Sequence record: OK283619.1
Source: Escherichia phage LPEK22
Strand: one strand, 5' to 3'
DNA: 64,000 nucleotides
How positions within the stretch are numbered: position 1 is the stretch's first letter; each line of letters begins with the position of its first letter. The translations under genes were made by a program, and so were the position numbers. Of this stretch, positions 19,854-49,211 are shown one piece after another. The notes beneath the pieces are model-generated. The model ran no database searches. It was given only the letters and a program-made list of their open reading frames with translations, and was not told where the DNA came from.

Positions 19854-19892
19854 AGATACCCCACACTGGTCGTATGGGGTATTTAGGATGGA

Positions 19893-27758: not shown

Positions 27759-27766
27759 CTAAATAT
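27759..27766 (+). promoter_or_regulatory. late promoter motif CTAAATAT
   Basis: CTAAATAT about 40 nt upstream of the first late gene; same motif recurs before other late genes. Confidence 0.45.
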
Positions 27767-27805
27767 CTTCAACACCATATTCAAACTCAGGTGATGGAGA
27801 TTATC

Positions 27806-30427: not shown

Positions 30428-31618
30428 ATGGCCGATTTCCTGAGTCAATATACAGGTCAGCAGATAGATCAGATATTGGGTTCTGTTGACGACAAAGTAA
30501 GTAAAAACGACGTCATTGATGATTTTGAAGTCAGCGACCCATTGTTTCCACCGTCTGCTCGCCTGACATACGAGTTGAAAAGATCTGTTGACACAATCAA
30601 TGATACTTTGGCCAACAAAGTTATTCGGACAGATAGTGGTGAACAAACAATCAATGGCAAAAAGACTTTCAATGCTTTGTTGGTGACCAATGGGGGTATA
30701 CAAGTCCCTGCTGGAAAATCCGTTTCAATCACAGATGAACCAACGAACTCGACAGATGGTGTTAACCTGAGTATGTTGAGAAAGCATGGCGTCAGTGAAG
30801 ACACTACCCCGCCTGGTTCTGGTTTGGCTGGGGAGTTGTTGACATCCGGATATTACAAATTCAATTTGGATTTCACCAGATTGTCTGCGTATACCGGACC
30901 AACGTTGCCGACTTCAGTTCCAGTACAAACAGATTCTGGAGCGCGTTATTGGGCAATGACTGCATTTTTTGATGCGTTGTTTGCAGATAACCGATTTAAT
31001 GGATATGTGACAACGACAGCGTATGATGCAGATATGCTGAGTTTAGAGTCTCAAATTAATAACATCAACACGTCGTTGAACGGGAAAGTCAACACCTCGA
31101 CTTACAACACTAAGATGGCGTCGTTGGATTTGAGTATCTCCAATATCAACACGTCTCTGGGTAATAAAGTCGAGGTCAGCACATATAATACGAAGATGAC
31201 TTCCTTGGACGGCAGTATCAGTTCTCTCACGACTGGTAAGGTCGATGTATCAACGTATAATGCCAAAATGACCACAATTGATAACAGTTTAGGGAACGCA
31301 GTTTATCGCACAAAAACAAACTTGTCGTCATACACGGTTTCGGCTTCTGGAACGACGGCTCTTCCAGATTTTGATTTGGTGAACCTTTGTCAAATACTGG
31401 TAACTGCGCAATGGGGGACGGGTAACGTTGTTGACACATATCGAGTAACCATAACTCGTGACGGAACGATCAAATCAGAGTTGTTGGTTCAGAAAAGTAC
31501 GAGTGGTACAGTGACGTTCACAGGGGCTGTGGTGGGTGGTAAATTGAGAATTTCCGTTGTTAATGCGAATACAACAACCGCTTGTTCTGTCGATTATTCT
31601 ATTGCAGCTTCTTTCTAA
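30428..31618 (+). CDS. tail-fibre-like protein with internal tandem repeats
   Basis: 396 aa; four imperfect repeats of about 26 aa (STYNTKM[AT]SLD.SIS.INTSLGNKV); Ser/Thr/Asn-rich. Confidence 0.55.
   Translation: MADFLSQYTGQQIDQILGSVDDKVSKNDVIDDFEVSDPLFPPSARLTYELKRSVDTINDTLANKVIRTDSGEQTINGKKTFNALLVTNGGIQVPAGKSVSITDEPTNSTDGVNLSMLRKHGVSEDTTPPGSGLAGELLTSGYYKFNLDFTRLSAYTGPTLPTSVPVQTDSGARYWAMTAFFDALFADNRFNGYVTTTAYDADMLSLESQINNINTSLNGKVNTSTYNTKMASLDLSISNINTSLGNKVEVSTYNTKMTSLDGSISSLTTGKVDVSTYNAKMTTIDNSLGNAVYRTKTNLSSYTVSASGTTALPDFDLVNLCQILVTAQWGTGNVVDTYRVTITRDGTIKSELLVQKSTSGTVTFTGAVVGGKLRISVVNANTTTACSVDYSIAASF
31010..31300 (+). repeat. imperfect tandem repeats (about 78 nt unit) inside the fibre-like gene
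   Basis: Repeated DNA coding the YNTKM-SLD-SIS-INTSL-NKV peptide unit; coordinates approximate. Confidence 0.5.
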
Positions 31619-31620
31619 AA

Positions 31621-31631
31621 CTAAATACCCC
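31621..31631 (+). promoter_or_regulatory. late promoter motif CTAAATACCCC with downstream 5'UTR hairpin
   Basis: CTAAATACCCC then inverted repeat TACCCCTA...TAGGGGTA immediately before ATG 31665. Confidence 0.5.
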
Positions 31632-31664
31632 TAGATGACATGAATACATTTAGGGGTATTACAA

Positions 31665-34600
31665 ATGGCCAACAAACCAACACAGCCTCTTTTCCCTTTG
31701 GGTTTAGAAACTTCTGAGTCTTCGAACATAAAAGGCTTCAACAACTCCGGCACTATTGAGCATTCCCCTGGTGCCGTAATGACATTTCCTGAAGATACTG
31801 AAGTTACAGGTCTTCCATCTTCTGTACGTTACAATCCTGATAGTGATGAATTTGAAGGTTATTACGAAAACGGTGGTTGGTTGTCTTTGGGGGGCGGTGG
31901 AATACGCTGGGAAACGCTCCCTTACGCTCCCTCTAGCAATTTGTTAGAAGGTCGTGGTTATCTCATTAATAATACCACAGGGACATCTACAGTGGTTCTC
32001 CCTTCCCCTACGCGTATTGGGGATTCCGTTACTATTTGTGATGCTTATGGGAAATTTGCCACTTACCCATTGACCGTGTCTCCTTCTGGAAATAATTTGT
32101 ATGGCTCCACTGAAGACATGGCTATAACAACTGATAACGTATCAGCAACGTTCACTTGGTCTGGACCTGAACAAGGTTGGGTTATCACATCCGGCGTCGG
32201 TCTTGGCCAAGGCCGTGTCTACAGTCGTGAAATCTTTACACAAATTTTGGCGTCTGAAACAAGTGCTGTCACTCTCAATACTCCACCAACAATCGTGGAC
32301 GTGTATGCTGACGGAAAACGTCTTGCGGAATCCAAATATTCACTAGATGGGAATGTAATCACTTTCAGTCCTTCTTTGCCAGCCAACACAGAACTTCAGG
32401 TGATTGAATATACTCCGATTCAATTGGGTAATGGCGGTGGTTCTGGTTCTTCTACGATTACCTGGGTCTATAATGGGGGTTCAGCGATTGGCGGTGAAAC
32501 CGAAATCACGTTAGACATCGTTGTTGATGATGTTCCGGCCATTGATATAAACGGAAGTCGCCAGTATAAAAATCTGGGGTTCACATTCGATCCATTAACC
32601 AGTAAAATCACTCTTGCGCAAGAACTGGATGCAGAGGATGAAGTTGTTGTAATTATCAATGGAACGCCAAACATCTATAATCAAATTGATTATACTTTGC
32701 GGGAAGTGGCTCGTGTAACCAATGTTAAAGATACAGAGGTCGTTTATTTTAGTGTTGGTGCTGTGTTAAGCGGGTATAAAGTTATCTACGATAAAATAAC
32801 ACAGAGATCATATTTTATTCCAGAGTTACCGACTGGAACCACGGCAGTCAGCCTTAGTTCTTCGGCTGTGCTTGTACATTCTGCTGGTAGTGTTGATCTG
32901 GGCGCATTAGCTGTATCTCGTGAAGAATATGTTACCTTGGCTGGGACATTTGATTCTGGTGCTGTCATCAATACTAAAAATGAATTACTCACCCATACTG
33001 ATGGAAAGTATCGTTGGGATGGTACACTTCCTAAAACTGTAGCTGCTGGCTCAACACCTGCAACAACTGGAGGCGTTGGTTCGGGAGCGTGGTTGAGTGT
33101 TGGTGATGCCACTGCCCGCCAGTGGGTAGCTAATAATTATATCAATAGTAAATTCGAGAAGTTTGGGTCTTTCTTGCAAGGTTCAGTTTTAACCACCAAC
33201 GAGCAAGCTCTTGTTGATTCAAGTGGTCTTTTCTGGGTTAAATATGGTGCTATACAAAGTGGTGGTTATACAGTAGCGCCGGGAACTGTTCCAGACTATC
33301 CCGATTTTTACTGTGTTGGATATTTAACAGATTATGATTGGCAGTCTGTTACAAACTGGGGTGCTGATAACAACTATTCTATCGCAGATAAGATCGGTGT
33401 AGACGCGGTCGATGCTATAAACCTCGCAGGTTATCATGCGGAGAAACGTGCGGAACTATTCGGATCCCAGCAAGTTGTCATGGTTCCTGCTGGCACTTAT
33501 CTGTTGGATAAAACGACTCTTGTGGAAGGCACGGCGCATGGTCTGACTATTTATCGTAATCAGGAAGTTATGATTTTTCTTCGCAACAACGTTACTTTCA
33601 TCGGCGATGGCGACGCAACGTTACTGTATGTTGCCGATGGTGTTGTTGAGCGCAATAAGGAAAACGGGGGCACTAAAGGCTTTGTAGTTTTCGGTGATGG
33701 TATTCGTGAAATTCAGAACGCATATGTCCACGATATGCTAATTGATGAAAATGGTGACAATAACCTTGTCCCGCCATTGAACTGGTCTGGAGCACAAGCT
33801 CATTGTCCAGCAGTAGCTTGTTACGAAGGTAGTAATGGTGTGACTGTTTCTGGAGTTAACGTCAAGAATGCTCCTGGTGCAAACGTAATGGTATTCCAGG
33901 AAGCTCAGGCAGCGTTCAACAGCTACAATACGCGTGTAGAGAATTGCAACTTCTATCGCGTTGCTGACGCTGTGACTGGAAACAGTAACCTAATAGACCA
34001 CTCATCAATAAGAATTCATTCCGATGGCTACGTTATAAATAACGTTAAATGTATCCAGCCAACCATGTCAGACATGTGTACGGTATTTGAGTGTCATGGT
34101 AATGGGATCGTTGATGGATGCATCACCAAAAAAGCTCGCTACCCATTCCTGAAGGCTAACGACGGTGCTACATCGACATCTATAGTCACCTTCACAAATA
34201 ACGTCTGTGAGGACGCAGGTAGTGCTTTGGTTCTGGATACCGTACCTAACGTTACAACTGTTGCCAGATTTATTGGTAATACTGTAACGCTACGATCAGA
34301 AAAGCAAGTTATCGGGTATCCTAATACTGCGGCATTCACAACACAGCAGCCGTCTGTTTTGTCATCTGACCCAACCACTATTAATGCAATTATTTACTCT
34401 GCAAATAATAACATATTGCAAAAAAACAGAGCCGCAGATTGGACAACTGAACAAAAAGCTGCAAACGTTGCTTATGACCTGGACTATTTCAAAGAAGTTG
34501 TTAGTGAAAATAACACTTTCTCAGGTTTTTGGGGGTGTGTTCGCTTGGGTAAACAAAAAACAGGTGCTACTTTCAACAGCAATGACTCTTTTGTCTCTTG

Positions 34601-35168
34601 CGGGACCAACGGTTCACCTCAATTATCAGACAACACAGCCATAAGGTTTACCAATAAATTTGCCAACGATTATCTTGTTCACCTTGATGAAATGCATATT
34701 AAATGGAATATGACAAAATGTCAGTTTGGTGGTGTCCTGGGTTTATTGCAACAAGCAGCAGGAGTGACTGTTGGTGTTGTGCAATTCACTGCTGATATTA
34801 AAACAGATAGATGGATGCATCCAGCGCTTGGGATAGCTCCACTATCCGTACAGGATTACTACTTCAACATTGATGTATACAGTGATGTGAATACCAGTGA
34901 ACCTTTATACGGATACGCTGGTATTCATGGGCAAATTAATGTTGACTCGCCAACTCAACCATATGTTAAACAATTTTACAAATACAAACCAAACACCCAG
35001 AATGGATGGTGGTTTAAAGGCATTTTAGCAACTGACACAACTTCTGTTCCTGACAGGCCTTTTGGTAATGCGTCTGGTGACAGATATGATGTTATTGCTG
35101 GGGCATCAAATATTTTCGGGTATCGACATAATGGTACAACATGGGATGCAATGAAATTTACATCATAG
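31665..35168 (+). CDS. tailspike protein, long form (N-terminal anchor region + shared module + C-terminal catalytic/receptor-binding domain)
   Basis: 1167 aa; shares the module VKDTEVVYFSVGAVLSGYKVIYDKITQRSY...KYRWDGTLPK...GAWLSVGDA with the three downstream genes; Gly/Asn-rich C-terminal region. Confidence 0.75.
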   Translation: MANKPTQPLFPLGLETSESSNIKGFNNSGTIEHSPGAVMTFPEDTEVTGLPSSVRYNPDSDEFEGYYENGGWLSLGGGGIRWETLPYAPSSNLLEGRGYLINNTTGTSTVVLPSPTRIGDSVTICDAYGKFATYPLTVSPSGNNLYGSTEDMAITTDNVSATFTWSGPEQGWVITSGVGLGQGRVYSREIFTQILASETSAVTLNTPPTIVDVYADGKRLAESKYSLDGNVITFSPSLPANTELQVIEYTPIQLGNGGGSGSSTITWVYNGGSAIGGETEITLDIVVDDVPAIDINGSRQYKNLGFTFDPLTSKITLAQELDAEDEVVVIINGTPNIYNQIDYTLREVARVTNVKDTEVVYFSVGAVLSGYKVIYDKITQRSYFIPELPTGTTAVSLSSSAVLVHSAGSVDLGALAVSREEYVTLAGTFDSGAVINTKNELLTHTDGKYRWDGTLPKTVAAGSTPATTGGVGSGAWLSVGDATARQWVANNYINSKFEKFGSFLQGSVLTTNEQALVDSSGLFWVKYGAIQSGGYTVAPGTVPDYPDFYCVGYLTDYDWQSVTNWGADNNYSIADKIGVDAVDAINLAGYHAEKRAELFGSQQVVMVPAGTYLLDKTTLVEGTAHGLTIYRNQEVMIFLRNNVTFIGDGDATLLYVADGVVERNKENGGTKGFVVFGDGIREIQNAYVHDMLIDENGDNNLVPPLNWSGAQAHCPAVACYEGSNGVTVSGVNVKNAPGANVMVFQEAQAAFNSYNTRVENCNFYRVADAVTGNSNLIDHSSIRIHSDGYVINNVKCIQPTMSDMCTVFECHGNGIVDGCITKKARYPFLKANDGATSTSIVTFTNNVCEDAGSALVLDTVPNVTTVARFIGNTVTLRSEKQVIGYPNTAAFTTQQPSVLSSDPTTINAIIYSANNNILQKNRAADWTTEQKAANVAYDLDYFKEVVSENNTFSGFWGCVRLGKQKTGATFNSNDSFVSCGTNGSPQLSDNTAIRFTNKFANDYLVHLDEMHIKWNMTKCQFGGVLGLLQQAAGVTVGVVQFTADIKTDRWMHPALGIAPLSVQDYYFNIDVYSDVNTSEPLYGYAGIHGQINVDSPTQPYVKQFYKYKPNTQNGWWFKGILATDTTSVPDRPFGNASGDRYDVIAGASNIFGYRHNGTTWDAMKFTS
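32700..33125 (+). repeat. shared tailspike N-terminal module, copy 1
   Basis: DNA/protein similarity to 35325-35750 and 40360-40790; approximate coordinates. Confidence 0.6.
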
Positions 35169-35174
35169 TAAAAA

Positions 35175-35195
35175 CCCCGCTTCGGCGGGGTTCTT
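35175..35195 (+). terminator. intrinsic terminator CCCCGC-TTCG-GCGGGG
   Basis: Hairpin followed by TTCTT; same stem-loop reused at four other sites. Confidence 0.6.
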
Positions 35196-35231
35196 ATTAT
35201 ATCCATGTTTATAAAATTTTGTTAATTCAGA

Positions 35232-35242
35232 CTAAATACCCC
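35232..35242 (+). promoter_or_regulatory. late promoter motif CTAAATACCCC
   Basis: Motif followed by hairpin CCCCATA-N12-TATGGGG that ends 7 nt before ATG 35272. Confidence 0.5.
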
Positions 35243-35271
35243 ATATTGGTCATCCTTTATGGGGTATTATC

Positions 35272-37368
35272 ATGATTTCTCAATTCAATCAACCACGCGG
35301 CTCCACTTCCATAGAAGTTAACAAACAATCTATCGCTCGAAATTTCGGTGTCAAAGAAGACGAAGTCATTTATTTCACTGTCGGTATTGATCTCAGCGGA
35401 TTTAAAGTAATTTATGATGAGTCTACCCAACGGGCTTATTCTCTTCCTTCAGGTATTGTTTCAGGAACGACTGCGATAAGTCTGAACGAACAAGCCATCC
35501 TTACTCATTCTTCTGGCTCTGTTGATCTCGGGGAATTAGCAGTAAGCCGCGAAGAATATGTGACTTTACCTGGTTCTTTTAATTTCGGCCATACTATTAA
35601 TGTGAAAAATGAACTTCTTGTTCACGATGATGAAAAATATCGATGGGATGGTGCATTACCTAAAGTTGTTCCTGCTGGTTCAACTCCAGCATCAACTGGT
35701 GGCGTTGGTTTAGGTGCTTGGGTTAGTGTTGGTGATGCTGCATTTAGGCAGGAAGCTAATAAGAAATTCAAATATTCAGTAAAGTTATCTGATTATTCTA
35801 CATTACAGGATGCAGCGACAGCAGCCGTAGATGGATTGCTTATTGATGTTGACTACACTTTTACTGCAGATGAGAATGTAGATTTTAGCGGTAAAGTTTT
35901 AATCATTGAATGCAAAGGAAAATTCATTGGCGATGGTATGTTGGTTTGGAATGGTTTGGGTGCGGGCTCAGTAATTAAGAAACCGCACATGCATACTAAA
36001 ACTACGCCGTATACTGTTTACCGATTCGATGCAAACGGTAATTGGGTTACAGACCCAACACAAGTTCTGGCATCTGTTCAGCAGCGTTTGGATGTTGGAT
36101 ATAAGCCAAATATTAACGATTTAGATATTTGGGACGACCTTCCTGATAATGTAAAAAATCAGGTTGCTGGTGCTACTTTGCGAATAATGAGCGGCGATAA
36201 TATCATCGTAGAGAACCCAGAAGCTACATTTGGTGGTTATCTATTTACTTTATGTAATAGGATTCTTGTTAAGAATCCACGCAATTTTATTGCTTTGGAA
36301 TCGGGCATTACATTTGAGAACCATCATACAACTGCATGGGGTACTGGCAACTGGGTTGTTGGGGGTGAGATAAAATATGGCTCTGGTTCCGCTGTACTGT
36401 TCATTCGCAATGATGGTGGTACAGACCATGATGGTGGAGTAAGGGATTTAATCTCATACCGTGTTGGAGAATCAGGTATTAAAACCTATCAGAACGAAAT
36501 TGGAGGTCGTTCAGCCAGGAACTACCGTTTAGTGTTCGACAATATAACTACAATCCAGTGTTACTATGATGGTATTGATGTTAATGCTGACACAGGGTCG
36601 CCAACTGAACGTGTGGATGACTACTCACTCGCAGAGTATCCATGGTTCCACCTACCTACTCAACATATCATCCGTAATATTATTACTCGTGATTGTATGG
36701 GGATTGGTGCTTGGTGGGATGGTCAGAAAAATATTATTGATAATGTTGTTACTTATGAGGCCCATAAGGAAGGCGTCTTCGATAGGGGTACTAACAATGA
36801 TATTACTAACATTACTGTAGTAGGTGCGAATAAGGATTTAACTAACCTAAATCAGCTTACCTGTGAGGGAGGTAGTAGACTTCGTGGTATTAACATCCAT
36901 GCATATACTACACAAGGTTACGCTATATACGCTCCGTCTTCAGAAGTAAGTAATGTTTCCTGTGCTGGTTCCGGTACTAAGAAATTACTATGTACCTATA
37001 TAAGCGATATTCAGGGAGGTAATATCAATGTTCAGCATAGTGCCAACCAAATGACACTTGCAATGCAACCTGCTATGGGTGGTACTACAAACCCATCTTT
37101 GCTTATGACGGCAGATTGCCAGGTTGCTACACCAGGGGGTGAGGCAAGTATTGTCAAGCTTTCGGCAATTCAGGAGGGTGTACGTGTAGGTGAGTTTCAG
37201 CTTAACCGCTTAGGCTTTAAGCATATGAGTATACCTGCTGCCCCTTTACAATTACCAGAGAGCGCTCTGGAACATAATTCATCTATAGGATTCTTCTTCG
37301 GAAGTGACGGAGCATTGAGGTTGCTTGCTAAAAAACCAGATGGAAGTTATGTAACATACACACTTTAA
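35272..37368 (+). CDS. tailspike protein, short form (shared module at extreme N-terminus)
   Basis: 698 aa; begins directly with VKEDEVIYFTVGIDLSGFKVIYDESTQRAYSLP...KYRWDGALPK...GAWVSVGDA; distinct C-terminal domain. Confidence 0.75.
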   Translation: MISQFNQPRGSTSIEVNKQSIARNFGVKEDEVIYFTVGIDLSGFKVIYDESTQRAYSLPSGIVSGTTAISLNEQAILTHSSGSVDLGELAVSREEYVTLPGSFNFGHTINVKNELLVHDDEKYRWDGALPKVVPAGSTPASTGGVGLGAWVSVGDAAFRQEANKKFKYSVKLSDYSTLQDAATAAVDGLLIDVDYTFTADENVDFSGKVLIIECKGKFIGDGMLVWNGLGAGSVIKKPHMHTKTTPYTVYRFDANGNWVTDPTQVLASVQQRLDVGYKPNINDLDIWDDLPDNVKNQVAGATLRIMSGDNIIVENPEATFGGYLFTLCNRILVKNPRNFIALESGITFENHHTTAWGTGNWVVGGEIKYGSGSAVLFIRNDGGTDHDGGVRDLISYRVGESGIKTYQNEIGGRSARNYRLVFDNITTIQCYYDGIDVNADTGSPTERVDDYSLAEYPWFHLPTQHIIRNIITRDCMGIGAWWDGQKNIIDNVVTYEAHKEGVFDRGTNNDITNITVVGANKDLTNLNQLTCEGGSRLRGINIHAYTTQGYAIYAPSSEVSNVSCAGSGTKKLLCTYISDIQGGNINVQHSANQMTLAMQPAMGGTTNPSLLMTADCQVATPGGEASIVKLSAIQEGVRVGEFQLNRLGFKHMSIPAAPLQLPESALEHNSSIGFFFGSDGALRLLAKKPDGSYVTYTL
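35325..35750 (+). repeat. shared tailspike N-terminal module, copy 2
   Basis: See copy 1; approximate coordinates. Confidence 0.6.
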
Positions 37369-37385
37369 TTTATCTTGAGCAAAAA

Positions 37386-37406
37386 CCCCGCTTTGGCGGG
37401 GTTCTT
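37386..37406 (+). terminator. intrinsic terminator CCCCGC-TTTG-GCGGGG
   Basis: Hairpin followed by TTCTT. Confidence 0.6.
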
Positions 37407-37441
37407 ATTATACCTTTGTTCATAAATTTTATTAGTTCAGA

Positions 37442-37452
37442 CTAAATACCCC
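37442..37452 (+). promoter_or_regulatory. late promoter motif CTAAATACCCC
   Basis: Same arrangement as upstream of gene 35272. Confidence 0.5.
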
Positions 37453-37483
37453 ATATTGGCAAATCCTTATGGGGTATTTTCAA

Positions 37484-40249
37484 ATGACCAGAAATGTAGA
37501 AGAATTATTCGGCGGCGTAATCACAGCTCCCCACCAGATTCCTTTCACGTATAAATCAAATGTCGGTGGAGAAACTTTCCTTTCTTTGCCGTTCCATCCC
37601 GTCACTGGTGTTATCACAATCAACGGTGGTATGCAAGTTCCGTTAGACAACTTTGAAATCGAAGGAAATACATTGAATCTCGGACGCGCATTGTCCAAAG
37701 GCGATGTTGTGTATTGCTTATTCGATAAAATTCTTTCGCCAGAAGATACAGCCAAAGGTATCCGCATATACAAATTTCAGGCCGTAGGAGGTGAAACCGA
37801 GTTCACTCCTGATTTCACATCTTATGGAGTCCAATCTCTTTATATCGGTGGCGAGTACAAAACCCCCGAAATTGAATATTCCTATGACAGTACGACAGGA
37901 AAAGTATCTTTGCAAACTGCACTGACTGCAGGCGTTTGGGTAGTCGCTGAAATGTCTGTTAAACAACCGAATATCAGTCCGGCGTTTGACCGAAGTATTC
38001 AAGAAATCGCCCGTTCTGCTAATGTAAAAGACTCTGAAGTCATCGTTAGTACGGACACCATATCTTTGTTGGATGGGAAGAAAGTTGTTTATGACATAGC
38101 GGCGCAAACCAGTTATGGTTTACCAACCATTCCTGATGGTTCTGTCATTTCTTCTGTATCTGCTGGGAAATTGAATTACAATCCAGGTGATGTGCAGGTT
38201 GATTTGTTGCCTTTAGAAGATTCATTTATTAATGTGATAAACACTCTGGGGCGAAATGATGGTGCCAAGTATATTGGAGAATGCCATTCTGTTGCTGATC
38301 TCAGGAATACTGAACCCACTATGGATGGACAACGCATTATTCTTAAGCAACACACTGCGGGTACTCTTCTTGGTGGAGGGGTATTCCGTGCGTTAATTGA
38401 TGGTACAGGAAAGACTGATAATAACGGTACTGTGATCAAAACTGTTGGCGGCGCAGCATGGTTACGTGTTAATGCTGATAGAGTTAACCCATTCATGTTT
38501 GGTGCTTTGGGTGGTTCTAATGATGATACTATTCCAGTACAATCTTGTGTGGATAGTGGTAAGGCCACACAATTAACTGGTGTACATTACGTTAGCAATA
38601 TCCAGTTAAAATATAATACGTCGTCTATTTATGGGTCTGGATTACATTACTCAAGGTTGCATCAGTTGCCTTCTGCTACTGGGAATTGTATTACCATAAA
38701 AGATACATGCTCCCTTATTGTATTAGACGCCTTTGGGGTATATGGCACAGGTGCACAACAAGGCACGTCATTTACTGCGGGCACAACAGGTATCTATGTA
38801 GAAACTCCTTCAGGTCTCTCAGCCGATTATCCGTTCCACACTACCGCAGACCCAAGACGGGACTTGTGTATTTCTAAGGTCCATATAGCAGGTTTTGATG
38901 AATATGGGTTAAATATTGATAGTGGTAACTTTAGTGTTACTACAGATTCTCTTTTAGTCAACCACATCAATCAGGTGGGTGTCCGTTGTGCTACTACTGA
39001 TTGGACTTGGACAAATATCCAGGTTAATACCTGCGGTAAACAATGTCTAGTTCTTGATGGTTGTGGTAATGGTCGTATTATTGGCGGTAAATTCATTTGG
39101 GCTAACTGGCAACCTTATGGTACAGTAGGACAGTTCCCAGGCATTACTATTAATAACAGCCAGAATATGGTTATTAATGGTATTGAGGTACAAGATTGTG
39201 GCGGGAATGGTATTGAGATTAGCGAGTCATATTCAATTTCCATGAACGGATTGAACACCAATCGTAACGGCATCAATGCTAACAACACTTTCTACAACAT
39301 CGTATTTAACAAAAGTGATGCAGTTATCAACGGATTCGTAGGACTCAATTATGCCGCGAATAGTGGTTCAGGTGCTAACTCTAGTGCAGGCAATTTTCAG
39401 TTCCTGTCTAATGATTGTAGTGTCACCATTAATGGTGTGGTTGAGACTGGTTATATGGGCATTAACTTTATTGGTGATAACAATATTATCAACCCCACCA
39501 ATTCCGACCTGAGCATTAACGGATTGGTTAATTATTCCAAGACTGGTTTGCAAACCATGAACGAGACCCCTACATTTGATGGTGTTAGCACTACACCTGT
39601 TTATGTAAGTGTCCCATCTTCTGTAGGGCAAGTAAATGGTCTGAGACTATCACAAGCCAACAAAGATAAATTACTGTATTCAAGAACAGCAGGTCCAGAA
39701 GGTATTACCATGGCTGCTGTTGTAGTACCCACCATATCTGGAGCTGAAGTATTTAACTTCATGGCCATTGGTTCAGGGTTTAGTGATACATCCAACAGTC
39801 TTCATCTTCAATTAGTTATAGACGCTTCTGGAAAACAAACAATTGCTTTGCTATTGGGGGGCGATGGTACAACCCAAATTTTATCTGGGGATTTACCTAA
39901 CGACCTTAAACTACAAAGTGGTGTACCATATCATATAGCTATTGGTGCTAAACCTGGATATTTCTGGTGGAGTATTCTTAATATTCAGACGGGTAAGAGA
40001 ATCAGACGGTCATTCCGAGGCGCTTATTTAGCCGTACCATTTAATTCTATATTCGGATTAACTTCTTCATTAACATTCTTCTCGGATAGCAATGCTGGTG
40101 GGGATGCTTGTTCTGGGGTGGGCGCTAAAGTGTATGTTGGTATGTTCTCTTCCGAGAACGATTATGTAGCTTCACGATACTACAATCTGATTAATCCGGT
40201 AGACCCTACTAAGTTAATTAGTTACCGTATATTGGATTCTTCTATTTAA
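37484..40249 (+). CDS. tailspike protein, long form (diverged copy of the shared module)
   Basis: About 921 aa; start set at second in-frame ATG 37484 (MTRNVEELF) by analogy with the neighbouring gene, track start is 37469; diverged module IQEIARSANVKDSEVIV; Asn/Gly-rich C-terminal region. Confidence 0.7.
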   Translation: MTRNVEELFGGVITAPHQIPFTYKSNVGGETFLSLPFHPVTGVITINGGMQVPLDNFEIEGNTLNLGRALSKGDVVYCLFDKILSPEDTAKGIRIYKFQAVGGETEFTPDFTSYGVQSLYIGGEYKTPEIEYSYDSTTGKVSLQTALTAGVWVVAEMSVKQPNISPAFDRSIQEIARSANVKDSEVIVSTDTISLLDGKKVVYDIAAQTSYGLPTIPDGSVISSVSAGKLNYNPGDVQVDLLPLEDSFINVINTLGRNDGAKYIGECHSVADLRNTEPTMDGQRIILKQHTAGTLLGGGVFRALIDGTGKTDNNGTVIKTVGGAAWLRVNADRVNPFMFGALGGSNDDTIPVQSCVDSGKATQLTGVHYVSNIQLKYNTSSIYGSGLHYSRLHQLPSATGNCITIKDTCSLIVLDAFGVYGTGAQQGTSFTAGTTGIYVETPSGLSADYPFHTTADPRRDLCISKVHIAGFDEYGLNIDSGNFSVTTDSLLVNHINQVGVRCATTDWTWTNIQVNTCGKQCLVLDGCGNGRIIGGKFIWANWQPYGTVGQFPGITINNSQNMVINGIEVQDCGGNGIEISESYSISMNGLNTNRNGINANNTFYNIVFNKSDAVINGFVGLNYAANSGSGANSSAGNFQFLSNDCSVTINGVVETGYMGINFIGDNNIINPTNSDLSINGLVNYSKTGLQTMNETPTFDGVSTTPVYVSVPSSVGQVNGLRLSQANKDKLLYSRTAGPEGITMAAVVVPTISGAEVFNFMAIGSGFSDTSNSLHLQLVIDASGKQTIALLLGGDGTTQILSGDLPNDLKLQSGVPYHIAIGAKPGYFWWSILNIQTGKRIRRSFRGAYLAVPFNSIFGLTSSLTFFSDSNAGGDACSGVGAKVYVGMFSSENDYVASRYYNLINPVDPTKLISYRILDSSI

Positions 40250-40299
40250 AAAATACACCCCTCTTAGGAGGGGCTTACTAGAAAAACAAAGAGGTATGT

Positions 40300-42612
40300 A
40301 TGAACGAGATGTTTAGTCAAGGTGGTAAGGGTTCAACTGGAATCCTAACCAACAAACAAGCAGTAGCTAGACACTTTGGGGTTAAGCAATCTGAGATTGT
40401 TTACTTTTCGGTTGGTGTAGATTTAGGGGGGTATAAAGTTATCTATGACAAGGAAACGCAAAGAGCTTATTCCTTACCTGCTGGTATTGCTTCTGGTACT
40501 ACTGCCGTCAGTCTTAATACTGCTGCTGTACTTGTACATTCAGCAGGTTCTGTAGACTTAGGTGCATTAGCTGTATCTCGTGAAGAATACGTAACCTTAC
40601 CTGGTTCGTTTGATTCTGGCTCTACGCTTAACGTTAAAAATGAATTACTCACTTATACAGATGGTAAGTATCGCTGGGATGGAGCATTACCTAAAGCTGT
40701 CCCTGCCGGTTCAACTCCTGCATCAACTGGTGGTATTGGTCTTGGCGCGTGGGTTAGTGTTGGTGATGCTTCTTTGAGAACACAACTGGCAAACGGCAAT
40801 GGCTCGTTGATTGGAATTCACCCGCAGGGAACGCTAAATAATGTATTAACTGTGCGCACACCTGAACAGTACAATGCGGTAGGCGACGGAATAGATGACG
40901 ATACTTCAAAATTAAAAGAAATGCTTTCAGACATAAACAACGTTCCTGAAACACTTCCTGATGCTGCGGCTGTAAACTCGTACATGGAGCAAGTAGCAGT
41001 AAAAATTAACCTGACCAAGTTATACCGATTCACAGAGACGCTATACATACCCCCAGGTGTTTCAATTGAAATGCCAGCACCAAACTTTTTTACTCGTGAG
41101 TGTAAGCAAGGATTGTTTTATGACCCAGTAGATAAGAATACAGCAGCAATCAGCTTAATGGTGTACCGTAAACAACCTGATGGTTCATACAAACTCAATA
41201 AAGATGTAGATTATTATCCTACTGGGTTAGATATTGATAATGGGTACGCTGTAACATGTGCCAGAAAAATTGATATTAGTAACCTTAACCTGATTACAGC
41301 ACCAGGTGTAAAGGTTGGTGTTAAATGGATAGGTGGGGCAGGTTGCACTACAAAAGGGTTATCTATTGGGGAGAATACAGGGAGCGATATTACAACAGCA
41401 AGACTGCCAAGAGTAGGATTGTTGCAGTCAGCATCATGGGGTTCTGTTCATGAAAATCTACGCATCCTGTATAAAACTCAGGGCGCAGTGTTCATTGACT
41501 CTAATGGCGGTGCTACTGTAAACAATGCTTACATTTCCCGCCTTGGTAATACCAATGGTGAGCTAGAACAAGCGGTGTATAAACCAGCAGGGTTTACTGA
41601 GGTAGGTGATGTTGCCATCACTCAGTTTGCAGGTTCAGAGGTTAAGTTTAATAGCCCAATCATCGAACAAGCATCATTCGACTTTGTTCACGCTGGCCGG
41701 GATACTGATTCCTACGGTTTATTTATGGTTGATAAACCCCACATTGAATCATCTGGTGGGAAGAAAAAACATAGTTTCTACCTGATCAATACCAGTTCAG
41801 ATGTTACGTTGTCAGGGGTAGGTCTTTCCGGACAAGACCCTGATCTAGATAGTATGTACTTCCTTAAAAACTGCCCAGAAACTGCCCGAAATGTTGTCAG
41901 AGGACAAATGCCAGTAGGTGGTTTAAAACTCGTTAGAGGTACTGGTAACTACCCTACATTGGTACTCGACTGTACAAATATGGGAAGTCAATTCCAATTT
42001 GGGGAAGTTGGTGACATTTTCTATATCAAAGATGTTGTTGGTGTAAAAGCAGACACTCTATACATAGATCCTGTAAATGGTAATAACTACAACTGGGGAT
42101 TTAACGGAACCAAACCTATAAGAGAGCTACTTAATATTTCAAAGTTATGCCAGCTATTCAAGTGCAAAAGAGTTTATCTTAACCCAGGTGAGATAGCCAT
42201 TACCTCTAACACGGAGTTGCCGATGGTTAATTTTGAAGGTACTGGTAGCTTGAAGGCAAATTCTGGTAGTAGCTTCCTTATCAAAACCGGTGGGACATTA
42301 TCATTAATTGGGCTTGCTGGTATATCTACAGATGGCGGCCATATGTTTAGAGTCTCCACCACGGAAAAAGTAAACATACATACTAACTGCCCAGTGGATT
42401 CTGGTGCGGCCTATGTTGTACTAAGTGAGATTCAGGGTAATATTGAATACAGGCAATTATTCTATTCTGTAAATTGTTCTAAGTATGTAGGTGCAACAGC
42501 TGGACAAACTATCGCTGGTGTCATGGTTAAGACAGCGTCAAGACCGACAGGAATAGATGCTGATCCAGTTGATGGTAATACTTCTCTAACCTATAAAATT
42601 ATAGGATCATAG
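40300..42612 (+). CDS. tailspike protein, short form (shared module at N-terminus)
   Basis: 770 aa; N-terminus VKQSEIVYFSVGVDLGGYKVIYDKETQRAYSLP...KYRWDGALPK...GAWVSVGDA; distinct C-terminal domain. Confidence 0.75.
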   Translation: MNEMFSQGGKGSTGILTNKQAVARHFGVKQSEIVYFSVGVDLGGYKVIYDKETQRAYSLPAGIASGTTAVSLNTAAVLVHSAGSVDLGALAVSREEYVTLPGSFDSGSTLNVKNELLTYTDGKYRWDGALPKAVPAGSTPASTGGIGLGAWVSVGDASLRTQLANGNGSLIGIHPQGTLNNVLTVRTPEQYNAVGDGIDDDTSKLKEMLSDINNVPETLPDAAAVNSYMEQVAVKINLTKLYRFTETLYIPPGVSIEMPAPNFFTRECKQGLFYDPVDKNTAAISLMVYRKQPDGSYKLNKDVDYYPTGLDIDNGYAVTCARKIDISNLNLITAPGVKVGVKWIGGAGCTTKGLSIGENTGSDITTARLPRVGLLQSASWGSVHENLRILYKTQGAVFIDSNGGATVNNAYISRLGNTNGELEQAVYKPAGFTEVGDVAITQFAGSEVKFNSPIIEQASFDFVHAGRDTDSYGLFMVDKPHIESSGGKKKHSFYLINTSSDVTLSGVGLSGQDPDLDSMYFLKNCPETARNVVRGQMPVGGLKLVRGTGNYPTLVLDCTNMGSQFQFGEVGDIFYIKDVVGVKADTLYIDPVNGNNYNWGFNGTKPIRELLNISKLCQLFKCKRVYLNPGEIAITSNTELPMVNFEGTGSLKANSGSSFLIKTGGTLSLIGLAGISTDGGHMFRVSTTEKVNIHTNCPVDSGAAYVVLSEIQGNIEYRQLFYSVNCSKYVGATAGQTIAGVMVKTASRPTGIDADPVDGNTSLTYKIIGS
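40360..40790 (+). repeat. shared tailspike N-terminal module, copy 3
   Basis: See copy 1; approximate coordinates. Confidence 0.6.
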
Positions 42613-42618
42613 TAAAAA

Positions 42619-42640
42619 CCCCGCTTCGGCGGGGGTTTTA
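42619..42640 (+). terminator. intrinsic terminator CCCCGC-TTCG-GCGGGG
   Basis: Hairpin followed by GTTTTATTT. Confidence 0.6.
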
Positions 42641-42666
42641 TTTCTATCCTGTTTGTTGGCTGTATA

Positions 42667-42674
42667 CTAAATAT
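42667..42674 (+). promoter_or_regulatory. late promoter motif CTAAATAT (TATAAATG nearby)
   Basis: Upstream of ATG 42706; GGAG RBS. Confidence 0.4.
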
Positions 42675-42705
42675 CTCTATAAATGGCACTCTATGGAGCA
42701 TCAAA

Positions 42706-45700
42706 ATGCAATCTACAAATTTAAACCGTCGCCCGTATTGGGATGACTGGAATCCTGGGAAACGTTTTTCACGGATTCTTTTTCGTCCGATGCCTATCAA
42801 GGTTCAGACTCGAGAACTGAACCAGATGCAGACTATTCTTCAGGATCAAATTGAAAAACTAGGCAACCATTTGTTCAAAGATGGTTCTATGGTTATCCCT
42901 GGCGGTCTGACGATTACCAATGCCGCAGTCTCTTTGAAATTCACTTTGGCTGGTGGTACTGAATTCACTGATCTGGAAGGTATTTCTGAACTCTACGTTT
43001 TGGGGAAGGACAATAATGCCAAAGCACGTGTGTTGTCTCTTGAACGTGATCTGTCTGCTCCTGATACGATGCTGGCTATCCTTGAGATGACTGAAGCGGG
43101 TAATGCTGACGGATTCCATGTTAACGATAATCTGTATTTCCAGACTTACGACGTGAATGATAATTTCATTCGTATTGGTTATGGTATCGCAGCTGCAGTA
43201 ACTGGTTCTATCGTCGCTCGTATGACGAAAGGCGTTTACTTCATTCGTGGGATGTTCCTAGACGTTGATGACGCAACTCTTATCGTTGATAAAACTTCTA
43301 ACATCACTTCCCACCGCATCGGATTTAAAGTCACCGAAACTATTGTCACCGAAACAGAAGATGAATCCCTTTATTCAAATGCTCAGGGAACGATTAACTC
43401 CAAAGCCCCAGGCGCTCATCGTCTTCGAATAGATCTGGTCTTATCTCGATTTGATTATGACGCCGTGGTTGAAGATTTTGTTGAACTGGCCAAAGTTCGT
43501 GATGGTAAAATCCAGTCTATGGTGACTCAGTCCACCTATAATATTCTGGAAGACACGTTGGCCCAACGGACGTATGAAACCAACGGCGATTACAACGTTT
43601 CAACGCACCAGATCGACATCCGCGAACACCTGAAAGTCAATAACAATGGCGGGGTATTCAATGCCGCTGATGGCGGTGACGAGAGCAAATTTGTTTCTGT
43701 GATGAAACCAGGCATCTCCTATGTTCGCGGTCGACGTATCGAAAATGTCGGGGAAGAACTGGTTATTGTCGACAAGGCGCGGGATACCGATGTCCTGAAT
43801 AACACCCCTGTTGCGGTGGCCACAGGCAATTATCTGGTCACTAAGAATTCTAAAGGTGTGCCAGTGATATCCCGCACCGTTCGATACAAATTACTGAATG
43901 CTTCAGGCGTTACCCAGGCTACAGCACTTTGTATATCAGCTGAACGTAATTCAACAGAATTTCGTCTGTATATGCGCGACCTGGTCGTTACTGGCGATGC
44001 ATCCACTATCACCAAAGTGTCTTACGAAGAAAGCGGTATCACCATGTTCTCTGCTGAACTGGAATCCAATCAGTTTAACCAGAGTTCTATGATAGATCTG
44101 ATCTTCTCTCTTCCGGTATTCGGTGTCAAGACTTTAGCACCAACTGGCTCCGTGGATATCAACTACACTGTTCTCAGAACGTATAAAGTGACGTTGGACA
44201 ACAGCGGCGCGGGTTCTATTTCTGCTCCATTGGGATATAGTTTTTCCCCAGAATTTTCGTTGTACTCTGCAGCGAAATCTGATGGTTCTGAAGCGCAGTT
44301 CGATATCTCTGGTTCTTTGTCTTTGACTGGTTCTCCGGTCGGTTCGGCGCTGCAGATTTCTCTGGGCAGTGGTAATGCTAACCAGTCAATCAATTTGCTG
44401 GCGCTGATGATTCGTACCACGGCCACAATCAAAACGAAGACCATCACTGAAACAACTGAAACAGTGACATTCACCTCGCAGACTAGCCGTCCTTTGGCGA
44501 ATCACGATGGTTGGAAATTGGTGTCGGTCAAAAACGATACTGGCGCAGACGTGACCTCCAGCTTCGTCCTAGATGGCGGACAGCGTGATGCAGGGTATTA
44601 CAAGTCTAACTTGTTATCCAGCGCTGGAGCAATCTCAGGGACGTATACAGTGGTGTATCAATACTTCGCCCACAGTTCCGGTGATTTCTTCTCTGCTGAT
44701 TCGTATACTTCGATGGATTATAAAGATATCCCGAATTATACATCTTCTACATCAGGCGCGGTGTACGGCCTGGCAGATAGTTTGGATTTCCGTCCGAAAA
44801 TCACCAACGGAACTTCTGACACAGATATGGTTCGTCCAAACACTGCAGTTATTCTGGACACAGAATATTATCTGCCGCGTATCGACGCGATTTATCTGGC
44901 AGACAACGGCGTGTTTGGTGTGGCTCGTGGCATCAGTTCTAATAATCTGGCTTCTCCAGCAATCCCAGCGAACGCCATGCGTTTGTATGAATTGTTGATC
45001 CCGCCGTATACACCGAATATTGATGATATCCAAATTCGAACTATTGATAATCGTCGTTATACAATGCGCGATATCGGTAAACTGGAAACCCGTATTTCCA
45101 ATGTTGAATACTATACCTCTCTGTCACAGCTGGAATCTTCAGCGATGACACAGCAAGTGTTCGACCCCATTACGGGTAATCCTCGTTTCAAAAATGGTAT
45201 CGCAGCTGATCCGTTCAAAGACTTCCGGTTGATTGATGACTTGTCTGAAGATTGGATGGGTTCTATCGATACCGAAAACGGACGTCTGCGCCCGTTTGTA
45301 CAACAAAACGTTGTTGACATGACTCCGGTTGGCTGGAACAAAGTGATGGATGGGATGGTGGTTTGTAATTACACGCCTGAAATCTCGGTGAACCAAGAAT
45401 ATGCGACGACGACGATCAACGTTAACCCGTATGCAGTATTCAATTGGGAAGGTTTCTTGAAGATTAACCCGACCACAGACTACTGGTTCGAAAACTATTA
45501 TGTTGCGCCGCGTATTATCAATGAAACGATCAACACCCGTGGTACTGTACAAGAAGGTTCAGTGTACGGAACATGGCGTACTGTTTCTGTTTCTGATCGT
45601 GTTTGGGAACCGCATGGTGCTGGTGGTGTGTGGTGGGGATATCGTTACCGCACGACTGTTTCTGCCCGTGATGTCACCACATATACATACACGGACAAAA

Positions 45701-49181: not shown

Positions 49182-49190
49182 CTAAATACC
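49182..49190 (+). promoter_or_regulatory. late promoter motif CTAAATACC
   Basis: About 22 nt upstream of ATG 49212. Confidence 0.45.
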
Positions 49191-49211
49191 TTCAAAATTG
49201 AGGGTAAAGTC

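Follow-up and report, generated by a model that had tools for sequence, protein, structure and literature searches.

The window analysed here is a stretch of 64,000 nucleotides from Escherichia phage LPEK22 (OK283619.1), and all positions refer to it. The part used as query, 35100-37600, is 100% identical to Salmonella phage SFP10 (Kuttervirus, Ackermannviridae), in which genes for a late sigma factor, a gp33-like co-activator and the gp45 clamp are annotated. Four tailspike genes lie in a row on the plus strand: TSP4 (31665-35168; 1167 aa), TSP3 (35272-37368; 698 aa, P22-tailspike-like), TSP2 (37484-40249; 921 aa) and TSP1 (40300-42612; 770 aa, with an ordinary AAAGAGGT ribosome site). N-terminal domains are common to TSP4, TSP3 and TSP1. 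The true start of TSP2 is the ATG at 37484; the ATG at 37469, found in the mechanical list of open reading frames and in the SFP10 RefSeq record, falls within a hairpin described below. Kutterviruses and related phages serve widely, also in engineered form, to detect and control Salmonella and E. coli, and their host range is set by the four-gene tailspike locus.

The entire spacer between TSP4 and TSP3 (copy A, 35167-35272, plus strand) is repeated between TSP3 and TSP2 (copy B, 37378-37482, plus strand). A first-pass annotation of this DNA had put the two spacers at about 90% identity over some 100 nt; the repeat is confirmed, but the identity is a little lower, with 91 matches in a 105-column span (86.7%) by global alignment and 86-87% in gapless blocks. 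Each spacer holds a CCCCGC-TTYG-GCGGGG terminator, the 11-mer CTAAATACCCC and a hairpin with a GGGG(U) ribosome site in its 3' arm, all three being found where that annotation had placed them.

The terminators themselves are unremarkable in kind. The one after TSP4 (35173-35202, plus strand; -20.0 kcal/mol, z -5.26) reads AACCCCGC-TTCG-GCGGGGTT followed by CTTATTATAT, and the one after TSP3 (37384-37413, plus strand; -15.5 kcal/mol, z -3.3) reads AACCCCGC-TTTG-GCGGGGTT followed by CTTATTATAC; the cores, AACCCCGCTTCGGCGGGGTT at 35173-35192 and AACCCCGCTTTGGCGGGGTT at 37384-37403, both run directly into CTTATTATA. A third copy follows TSP1 (42619-42644, plus strand, with the stem-loop at 42619-42634), and two more follow the tail sheath gene (55387) and the capsid gene (61743); no copies are expected by chance. 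Those after TSP4, TSP3 and TSP1 start 5-16 nt past the stop codon. With a GC-rich stem-loop followed by a U-tract at gene 3' ends, and with low folding energies, the earlier terminator call is sound. The GC-rich stem of 6-8 bp, the UUCG or UUUG tetraloop and the U-rich tail are those of rho-independent terminators at large; the differences are that the U-tract is interrupted here (UUCUUAUUAU) and that the same 16-mer is used five times across the late region. A scan of 31000-43000 against Rfam gave no match at the gathering score, and only weak rsmX, RsmY and Leu-leader matches on the terminators. A sigma-70-like candidate promoter on the minus strand (35225-35196, 11/12 match) was judged to arise from the AT-rich tail of the terminator: copy B does not preserve the -35 part, and the candidate points towards the terminator.

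Exact matches to CTAAATACCCC occur four times in the window, before TSP4 (31621-31631), TSP3 (35232-35242) and TSP2 (37442-37452) on the plus strand and at 19886 on the minus strand, before a gene of 149 aa; chance would give 0.79 matches even if one mismatch were tolerated. None is present in the remaining 94 kb of the SFP10 genome. The sequence corresponds exactly to CTAAATAcCcc, quoted as one of two motifs unique to the Ackermannviridae ('Viunalikevirus') (PMC7283392), and the family late promoter, cited as known, has driven a reporter (PMC9965104). GenBank record OP991882.2 carries a 'Kuttervirus late gene promoter' before TSP4, TSP3, TSP2 and VriC, in each case as a feature of 7 nt placed 6 nt downstream of CTAAATA, and in SPTD1 the site equivalent to that of TSP4 bears a late gene promoter annotation. 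The late promoter is thus already known from publication and annotation, with which the first-pass call agrees. What differs is the setting: the published motif is used bare, whereas here it is embedded in a longer repeated cassette. In the literature searched, which was without the original description (Adriaenssens et al. 2012), neither the repetition of the longer cassette nor a pairing of the CCCC tail with the ribosome site was found.

The window contains 15 copies of the heptamer CTAAATA alone, where 7.5 would be expected, and genome-wide 19 of the 22 copies lie no more than 110 nt upstream of a co-oriented start codon (33-37 nt at TSP4, TSP3 and TSP2). It often precedes virion genes, among them gp6, the three tailspike genes, VriC (42667-42673, plus strand, as CTAAATA(TCTC) and with no conserved hairpin), 'head closure Hc2', sheath, prohead core and tube cap. 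The same promoter layout is present in Agtrevirus, Limestonevirus, Taipeivirus and Nezavisimistyvirus; the locus of a more distant relative, Pseudomonas phage Cygsa01, has no CTAAATA.

This arrangement had led to the suggestion that each tailspike is an autonomous late unit, a claim that fails for TSP1. Between TSP2 and TSP1 there is no CTAAATA, and the CCCCTC-TTAG-GAGGGG hairpin found there (40258-40273, plus strand) lacks a U-tract on that strand; TSP1 is therefore probably co-transcribed with TSP2. TSP4 is autonomous in part: it has its own promoter, 3 nt past the stop codon of the upstream gene (396 aa), but no terminator stands between the two. AV101 and SPTD1 show the same pattern, with TSP1 lacking a promoter and TSP4 an upstream terminator.

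A strong hairpin overlaps each of the three tailspike promoters. Before TSP4 (31624-31660, plus strand; -19.1 kcal/mol, z -5.18) the arms AATACCCCTAGAT and ATTTAGGGGTATT, at 31624-31637 and 31647-31660, enclose a loop of 9 nt, the 3' arm carrying GGGG and the ATG following at 31665. Before TSP3 (35235-35268, plus strand; -20.9 kcal/mol, z -4.41) the arms are AATACCCCATA (35235-35245) and TATGGGGTATT (35258-35268), with the ATG at 35272 and a Shine-Dalgarno pairing probability of 1.0. Before TSP2 (37444-37479, plus strand; -18.6 kcal/mol, z -4.40) they occupy 37444-37455 and 37468-37479, with the ATG at 37484. These hairpins fold better than 200 of 200 shuffled sequences, and in the full leaders the Shine-Dalgarno sequence is predicted to be paired with a probability of 0.97-1.0. 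The earlier description of the stem as CCCCATA-N12-TATGGGG is correct as far as it goes, the GGGG ending 7 nt (TSP3) or 9 nt (TSP2) before the ATG, but the predicted stem is longer, at 11-14 bp. The Shine-Dalgarno sequence does lie in the 3' arm, as had been proposed.

The position of the 5' arm is the critical observation. It begins at the fourth base of CTAAATA, that is, inside the promoter box (AATACCCC...). In phage T4 roughly one helical turn separates the late box from the start site downstream of it (PMC2988020), and by analogy with T4, the only basis on which we place it, the start site before TSP3 would be near 35243-35246. Leaders trimmed to the inferred start, some 6 nt past CTAAATA, come out as unstructured in the predictions (-3.7 to -5.2 kcal/mol, z >0). 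Promoter-started RNA should lack the 5' arm, and the hairpin should therefore form only on RNA that reads through from upstream.

This bears directly on the first-pass model, according to which the hairpin is a 5'-proximal stem-loop in the leader of the late mRNA, stabilising the message and presenting the ribosome site. There is something to be said for it: the hairpin is strong, conserved and ends 5-9 nt before the start codon, 5' stem-loops protect bacterial mRNAs, and no start-site data contradict the model (our search of the literature found no transcriptomes, transcript 5' ends, start sites or leader hairpins for Kuttervirus or Ackermannviridae). Yet AATA from the box and the 7-10 nt after it are part of the stem, and a polymerase using the box as a -10 element cannot transcribe them; moreover, a buried Shine-Dalgarno sequence would hinder rather than help the translation of abundant virion proteins. 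Since the 5' arm overlaps both the -10-like box and the expected start site, a leader hairpin on the promoter's own transcript is unlikely, and the model as a whole appears improbable to us. A further argument comes from T4, where gene e, of identical geometry, works in the opposite way.

A late promoter within a ribosome-site hairpin has been shown experimentally for T4 genes e, soc, 49 and I-TevI; in that phage the long transcripts are silent in translation, and the 5' arm is missing from the late ones (PMC3014915). The leader of gene e, TATAAATACCTTC...AGGAGGTATTATG, folds as AAUACCUUCU/AGGAGGUAUU (-14.9 kcal/mol, z -4.15) with the geometry seen here, where the corresponding arms are AAUACCCCAUA/UAUGGGGUAUU. 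In both phages a pyrimidine-rich arm pairing with the Shine-Dalgarno sequence comes directly after a late box of the gp55 type; a TATT beyond the ribosome site is the partner of AATA in the box; and one of the genes bearing the element encodes a resolvase (gene 49 in T4, a RuvC-like gene here). The features that define the gene e type recur: a late box stands just upstream and gp55, gp33 and gp45 genes are present (promoter activity being taken from annotation and literature), the Shine-Dalgarno sequence of longer transcripts is predicted to lie in a stable helix, and the 5' arm overlaps the late box. There are also differences. The box is CTAAATA here and TATAAATA in T4, and the ribosome site GGGG(U) as opposed to GGAGG; the element serves numerous structural genes here, including three consecutive ones, and often stands right after a terminator; the silenced transcripts are early or middle in T4, whereas here transcripts from upstream would be late; and silencing has been shown in T4, whereas here it is predicted from sequence and folds.

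The same design recurs at other CTAAATA sites. The fourth exact CTAAATACCCC is accompanied by an 11-bp hairpin (ATACCCCATAC/GTGTGGGGTAT; 19856-19886, minus strand; -18.7 kcal/mol, z -5.0) before the 149-aa gene, whose ATG is at 19853. CTAAATA with a hairpin of different sequence (ATCTTCA.ACACC / GGTG.ATGGAGAT; 27759-27801, plus strand; -19.4 kcal/mol, z -3.35) covers the GGAG ribosome site of the gp6 baseplate wedge gene (ATG 27806), and another (TACCTTCA/TGAGGGTA; 49182-49206, plus strand; -14.3 kcal/mol, z -4.3) covers the ribosome site of the 213-aa 'head closure Hc2' gene (SFP_0154; ATG 49212). Hairpins were also found with CTAAATA at the RuvC-like resolvase gene (-15.4 kcal/mol) and at the helicase gene (-14.3 kcal/mol). 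Several CTAAATA sites (VriC, sheath, tube cap, 58215 and 19407) have a weak hairpin or none. Across 18 sites, pairing between the promoter-proximal segment and the ribosome-site region of the same site averages -8.6 kcal/mol, compared to -4.9 +/- 0.58 kcal/mol for swapped partners (permutation test, p about 5e-5), and ribosome sites are more buried in genes with the motif than in genes without it (0.65 vs 0.44; p = 0.023).

The variety of these sites helps to weigh a second explanation, namely that the hairpin is mainly a terminator or attenuator embedded in the promoter, at which read-through RNA stops (CCCCAUA/UAUGGGG followed by a U-rich tail) and to which promoter-born RNA is immune. The tails after the hairpin GGGG are indeed U-rich (UAUUAUCA, UAUUUUCA), and the logic is shared with control at the ribosome site, so that both effects could coexist. 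As the main function it is nonetheless a poor candidate, and we rate it slightly below the leader model: loops of 9-12 nt and interrupted U-tracts are ill suited to intrinsic termination, the hairpins were not flagged in the terminator scan, the U-tract is consumed by the outer AAUA/UAUU pairs, and the 3' arm at gp6, at the 49182 site and in T4 gene e consists of the ribosome site and lacks a U-run.

To examine how the stem has evolved, 30 elements (18 of them distinct) from 9 phages and 5 genera, including Erwinia phage phiEa2809, were compared. The three pairs that lie within CCCC/GGGG are formed in every case, with 2-3 pair types each; RNAalifold gives 10 pairs, 4 of them with changes on both sides, and the gp6 stem covaries too, in other genera. 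Most elements are near-identical across genera, so that a small number of old variants, rather than many independent events, carries the covariation. The distance from CCCC to GGGG varies from 13 to 26 nt.

Two further explanations can be set against these data, and each seems to us very improbable. The inverted repeat might act in DNA, as the site of a dimeric regulator of the late promoter or as an aid to promoter opening; this would suit the fact that the promoter box is itself part of the repeat, and the high conservation of the element, which extends to part of the hairpin loop (TTGG...CC). Against it stand the variable arm spacing, arms that change in compensation and not as a fixed half-site, a 3' arm that is always the ribosome site, and the extension of site-specific pairing to promoters with quite different arms. 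Alternatively, the similarity of the spacers could be free of any function of its own and simply reflect duplication of tailspike genes in a young family. The shared N-terminal domains speak for such a history, as do the many elements that are near-identical across phages. Mere descent, however, does not sit well with the compensating substitutions in the stems, with retention of the element in phiEa2809, whose neighbouring protein is only 40% identical, or with homology between genomes that sets in again precisely at the edge of the motif, immediately after unrelated sequence.

We favor the reading suggested by T4: in RNA that enters from upstream, and in no other, the conserved hairpin probably masks the ribosome-binding site. 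Each boundary would then work as follows. The terminator, a stock rho-independent element, would end the transcript of the upstream tailspike gene. CTAAATA would serve as a -10-type box, read by host RNA polymerase together with the gp55-like late sigma factor and the gp33 and gp45 homologues. The segment AATA-CCCC-ATA, overlapping and following the box, would by its complementarity engage the gene's own ribosome site, TAT-GGGG-TATT, such that RNA entering from upstream folds into the hairpin of 11-14 bp, burying the Shine-Dalgarno sequence and perhaps also weakly terminating. RNA born at the promoter would start some 6 nt after the box, lack the 5' arm and present an open ribosome site. Translation of TSP4, TSP3 and TSP2 would thus be licensed mainly on transcripts from their own promoters, and the same may hold for gp6, the 213-aa gene at 49212, the RuvC-like resolvase, the helicase and the 149-aa protein. 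If the model holds, the 'cCcc' at the end of the published motif would find its explanation as an anti-Shine-Dalgarno arm.

The anatomy of the sequence, the predicted folds, the covariation, the conservation and the positions of homology breakpoints (below) were observed or computed; from there we infer where transcription starts, whether and how much read-through RNA is made and how translation is affected. Taken whole, as a T4-like boundary of the late region in which terminator, late promoter, Shine-Dalgarno-burying hairpin and a framework for exchange are combined, we hold the model to be somewhat better than an even proposition. Several points weigh against it, besides the CTAAATA sites with a weak hairpin or none and the small number of variants behind the covariation. 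Terminators lie just upstream of the TSP3 and TSP2 hairpins, and little read-through may therefore reach them. The gp6 gene lies behind a divergent intergenic region, and transcription into it from upstream is not apparent. Transcripts from upstream within the tailspike block would themselves be late, which makes it less obvious what silencing would gain. Finally, the bases that follow the late box are AT-rich in T4 and CCCC here, and the CCCC could instead serve the polymerase.

The breakpoints concern the second property attributed to the spacers, that they offer homology for exchange, which is supported both by where homology breaks and by natural mosaics. To the right, homology to phages that differ in their receptor-binding domains resumes either at the terminator edge (35169-35172, 37382-37386) or at the promoter edge (35231-35232, 37436-37441); to the left, it extends as far as ...GAW(V/L)SVGDA, a motif of the N-terminal domains. 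Some phages share an identical TSP3 yet have different TSP4, TSP2 or TSP1 receptor-binding domains. A search of related genomes for recombinant tailspike arrangements, as recommended with the first-pass annotation, did find natural mosaics: in SPTD1, AV101, Det7 and Ecl02 the paralogous spacers are mosaics of each other. Exchange of cassettes, as originally envisaged, is upheld as far as exchange itself goes, but the unit is the C-terminal receptor-binding part rather than a whole gene with its promoter. The promoter and hairpin, with or without the terminator, would belong to a conserved framework together with the N-terminal anchor domain of each gene, and could act as the downstream homology arm when the receptor-binding domain upstream is replaced.

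For tailspikes of the Ackermannviridae, it has been proposed that recombination takes place where the N-terminal TD1 domain ends (PMC8432352; PMC11721090). Our data resemble that picture in having conserved N-termini, variable C-terminal domains and left breakpoints at ...GAW(V/L)SVGDA; the difference is that those studies deal with neither intergenic sequence nor promoters, whereas the right breakpoints located here coincide with the edge of either the terminator or the promoter in the spacer.

In lambdoid phages, short conserved 'boundary sequences' lie between gene modules. The spacers are alike in being short, conserved intergenic module junctions that could guide homologous exchange; they differ in having an evident function in expression, which, rather than selection for recombination, may be the reason for their conservation.

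Terminator, promoter motif and domain swapping are each ordinary or already known. The more general proposition is that, in the enterobacterial Ackermannviridae sampled, the late promoter comprises a -10 box and an anti-Shine-Dalgarno arm ('cCcc'), that the tailspike genes and at least five others are translated only from own-promoter RNA, and that this insulation allows domains upstream to be swapped; we regard it as a tentative proposal, with rather less than an even chance of being right. If true, receptor-binding domains with arbitrary 3' ends could be exchanged upstream without disturbing the next gene, and the branched four-spike locus would be a natural plug-and-play system. Should the hairpin act as it does in T4 gene e, the conserved tail of the late-promoter motif would be accounted for, a tailspike or reporter placed behind another gene would be poorly translated unless its own promoter fires, engineers would be told which 40-110 nt to keep intact in swaps of receptor-binding domains, and a device of a handful of T4 genes would be seen in systematic use in a second family of large phages.

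Among six phages no receptor-binding domain was found to have moved between gene positions with its terminator, and the 24 C-termini are nearly all unrelated; the extra DNA after TSP4 and TSP3 in AV101 and Det7 was compared as a possible remnant of other tailspikes, and only its terminators matched any of the sequences used. The terminator may sometimes travel with a receptor-binding domain, and the terminator flanks of AV101 TSP4 and Det7 TSP2 are identical over 29 nt.

Over 35100-37600 the sequence matches Salmonella phage SFP10 and close relatives of it (Ackermannviridae, genus Kuttervirus) with 100% identity, and the annotated relative S117 gives the names of the plus-strand genes in order: the tailspike genes TSP4 (31665-35168), TSP3 (35272-37368), TSP2 (37484-40249) and TSP1 (40300-42612), then VriC (from 42706). 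The spacers between TSP4 and TSP3 (35167-35272) and between TSP3 and TSP2 (37378-37482) are direct repeats, with 86-87% identity in gapless blocks and 86.7% in a global alignment (91 matches in 105 columns), which upholds the repeat described in the first-pass annotation but lowers its identity from the roughly 90% judged by eye. The terminator proposed for each spacer is borne out by a strong stem-loop with a U-rich tail, AACCCCGC-TT(C/T)G-GCGGGGTT (-20.0 and -15.5 kcal/mol). It is an ordinary terminator. The 16-nt stem-loop, CCCCGCTT(C/T)GGCGGGG, of which no copy is expected by chance, occurs five times in the late region, after TSP4 (35175), TSP3 (37386), TSP1 (42619), the tail sheath gene (55387) and the major capsid gene (61743), and has no copy among the early genes of the genome. 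On the minus strand of the TSP4-TSP3 spacer a sigma-70-like match (TTAACA-18-TATAAT, 11/12; 35225-35196) faces the terminator; the second spacer does not preserve the -35 part and, the sequence being AT-rich, the match is probably due to chance.

The sequence CTAAATACCCC occurs exactly at 31621, 35232 and 37442 on the plus strand and at 19886 on the minus strand, with no further copy in the rest of the genome. Its core, CTAAATA, is found 22 times in SFP10, and 19 of these have a co-oriented start codon within the next 110 nt, in many cases that of a virion gene. SFP10 encodes homologues of the T4 late-transcription proteins (late sigma factor, gp33-like co-activator and gp45 clamp). That the motif is a late promoter is a sound call: in the GenBank record of SPTD1, TSP4, TSP3, TSP2 and VriC are each preceded by an annotated 'Kuttervirus late gene promoter', and the literature cites CTAAATAcCcc as one of two regulatory motifs found only in Ackermannviridae (PMC7283392). 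The motif is thus already known. The 7-nt SPTD1 features (L004 3702-3708, 6827-6833 and 9062-9068) lie 6 nt 3' of CTAAATA and cover ACCCC with two more bases, a displacement that looks like a coordinate offset in the record. The major capsid, portal and tail tube genes (regions upstream of 60399, 56525 and 55924) have neither an exact CTAAATA nor a ribosome-site hairpin, and carry CTAAGTA or CTAATTA at the equivalent position. The first 15 nt of the promoter region of gp6 (CTAAATATCTTCAAC) are duplicated at L003 10718, elsewhere in SFP10, on the minus strand some 109 nt before an unrelated early/middle-region gene.

The hairpin reported before the tailspikes is present, with a longer stem than was described: folding predicts 11-14 bp (-18.6 to -20.9 kcal/mol, z -4.4 to -5.2), beginning at the fourth base of CTAAATA. 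Before TSP3, AATACCCCATA pairs with TATGGGGTATT, and the 3' arm holds the GGGG(T) ribosome site, 7 nt from the ATG. T4 late promoters have their 8-bp box about one helical turn before the start site (PMC2988020). By that rule tailspike transcripts would begin about 6 nt after the CTAAATA box, and so would lack the CCCC arm; leaders cut at this point are predicted to be unstructured (-3.7 to -5.2 kcal/mol, z > 0). With the start so placed, we infer that the hairpin can form only in RNA arriving from upstream of the promoter. The hairpin is therefore unlikely to be, as described earlier, the leader of its own promoter, since the 5' arm overlaps the box and RNA from the inferred start is predicted to be unstructured. 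What advantage the device brings is unclear where a terminator lies directly upstream, or where upstream transcripts are also late. At TSP4 the stop codon of the upstream gene lies 3 nt before the box, and a ribosome terminating there could open the hairpin, coupling translation of the two genes.

The start codon first assigned to TSP2 needs a small correction. The SFP10 RefSeq record begins both TSP2 (37469, against 37484) and the RuvC-like resolvase (L002 41844) at an in-frame ATG within the hairpin 3' arm (TATGGG), and begins gp6 at a TTG 5' of the CTAAATA box (27755, against 27806); S117 and conserved N-termini point to the downstream ATG as the probable start in all three.

In predicted folds at other CTAAATA sites the 5' arm likewise starts where the box ends, and the ribosome site is covered by the 3' arm. 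Such hairpins precede the gp6 baseplate wedge gene (-19.4 kcal/mol), a 213-aa gene at 49212 annotated 'head closure Hc2' (-14.3 kcal/mol), a helicase gene (-14.3 kcal/mol) and the RuvC-like Holliday junction resolvase gene (L002 41830-41879, minus strand), where CTAAATACCCA accompanies a 13-bp hairpin (-15.4 kcal/mol, z -4.3). Hairpins of the same layout also precede the sheath gene, a 74-aa gene and VriC, all of them weaker and that of VriC not conserved; none is found at the tube-cap site, at 58215 or at 19407. The layout is general in the genome, not universal. Over 18 sites, pairing between the promoter-proximal segment and the ribosome-site region of the same site averages -8.6 kcal/mol, compared with -4.9 +/- 0.58 kcal/mol for swapped partners (permutation test, p about 5e-5). 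Within the window, gene starts that carry the motif show more structure than starts lacking it (mean z -2.4 versus -0.8, p = 0.026) and their ribosome sites are more often paired (0.65 versus 0.44, p = 0.023). Directly behind the capsid terminator, a 104-aa gene that lacks a CTAAATA box has a 9-bp hairpin, CCTGTTGTA/TACAACAGG (about 62090-62140, z -5.3), over its ribosome site; a promoter-like TTCAAT...TATAAC pair spans the 5' arm.

In related genomes the promoter-hairpin element precedes homologues of TSP4, TSP3 and TSP2 in five genera, in phages including SPTD1, Vi01, Det7 and Ecl02 (Kuttervirus), AV101 (Agtrevirus), JA15 (Limestonevirus) and KpnM-20 (Taipeivirus). In Erwinia phage phiEa2809, where a neighbouring protein is just 40% identical, it stands before four tail-fibre, tailspike and depolymerase genes. 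In all 18 distinct versions the three pairs adjacent to CCCC/GGGG are kept, with two or three pair types each (TA/AT, AT/TA/TG and GT/GC/AT). RNAalifold returns a 10-pair stem with two-sided changes at 4 of the 10 pairs, although most copies are near-identical and the covariation represents a few old variants. In the gp6 stem, T-A becomes A-T in phiEa2809 and U.G becomes C-G in a Klebsiella phage. Across elements the CCCC-to-GGGG distance ranges from 13 to 26 nt, which speaks for a nucleic-acid hairpin rather than a protein-binding palindrome of fixed form.

According to a review of T4, transcripts of genes e, soc, 49 and I-TevI that start further upstream sequester the ribosome site, and late promoters just upstream of these genes yield transcripts without the 5' part of the structure (PMC3014915). 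The gene e leader, TATAAATACCTTCTATAAATACTTAGGAGGTATTATG, folds as AAUACCUUCU/AGGAGGUAUU (-14.9 kcal/mol, z -4.15). Its geometry matches the Kuttervirus elements in three respects: the outer pairs come from the second half of the late box, a run of pyrimidines 3' of the box is paired to the ribosome site, and TATT follows the ribosome site. For this reason the elements are best read as further members of the gene e type of device. The resolvase hairpin of SFP10 also has a counterpart in T4 gene 49 (endonuclease VII), which belongs to the four classic cases. If this reading holds, the 'cCcc' ending of the published motif would be explained. What goes beyond the known parts is a hairpin that, with gene e geometry, would bury the ribosome site in read-through RNA alone; SFP10 has it at further late promoters too, and it is kept at tailspike and gp6 promoters in five genera.

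The proposal that each tailspike is an autonomous late unit holds in part. TSP4 has its own promoter and no terminator upstream. TSP1 has no CTAAATA; it follows a hairpin without a U-tract and has an ordinary ribosome site, AAAGAGGT. AV101 and SPTD1 share this layout. The hairpin of the TSP2-TSP1 spacer (spacer 40258-40299; equivalent spacers in L004, L005, L008, L009 and L014, loci of SPTD1, AV101 and further phages) is present in five phages, with Det7 having the stock terminator instead, and its stem differs in each phage that has one (for example CCCCTC/GAGGGG, CCCTCTC/GAGAGGG and CCCCACCCCC/GGGGGTGG). It may set the TSP2:TSP1 ratio, as a partial terminator or by stabilising RNA. A largely conserved tract follows, TT(T)A(C/T)TAGAAAAAC...GAGG, with TTTACTAGAAAAACAAAGAGG in several phages.

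The spacers had also been suggested to offer homology for exchange of tailspike cassettes. Comparing the locus with seven other phages, we found that conserved blocks stop within each gene at the end of the N-terminal domain (32501-33110, 35741-36053, 37965-38214 and 40772), at 33109, 35741 and 40772 on the protein motif ...GAW(V/L)SVGDA. Direct repeats inside TSP4, TSP3 and TSP1 (32724-33109, 35350-35738 and 40381-40769; 65-78% identity) are a common N-terminal anchor domain, and stop at the same motif. The blocks resume at the 5' edge of the terminator (35171-35172, 37382-37386 and 42614) or of CTAAATA (35231-35232 and 37436-37441), and restarts cluster likewise in a sample of 371 records. 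In alignments with Vi01 and Ecl02 the sequence is unrelated right up to the CTAAATA motif. Recombinant arrangements exist: with an identical TSP3 protein, STP55 has a different TSP4 receptor-binding domain (junctions 33109 and 35169), and a contig of ERR2174815 has different TSP4 and TSP2 domains (junctions 33111/35214 and 38187/40242). Paralogous spacers are mutually mosaic in SPTD1, AV101 and Det7, and in Ecl02 the switch lies inside the hairpin.

Breakpoints and mosaics thus favor the spacers as exchange homology, with the receptor-binding part of the gene, with or without its own 3' flank, supported as the moving unit in place of the whole gene. That the left-hand crossover falls where the N-terminal domain ends is published (PMC8432352, PMC11721090), in papers that make no mention of intergenic sequence. 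The spacers mark the right-hand junctions, and the data support spacer plus next N-terminus as the right-hand homology arm. At the promoter edge the boundary is sharp, which may owe as much to selection for keeping the promoter as to a preference for crossovers there. These features of spacer and hairpin should be useful to engineers of Kuttervirus-type phages. After TSP4, AV101 carries the terminator in two tandem copies 190 nt apart (L005 9797-10000); additional DNA is found 3' of TSP3 in AV101 (about 450 nt, L005 12047-12490) and 3' of TSP4 in Det7 (240 nt, L010 9761-10000). Apart from the terminators, none of these stretches matched the other loci compared.
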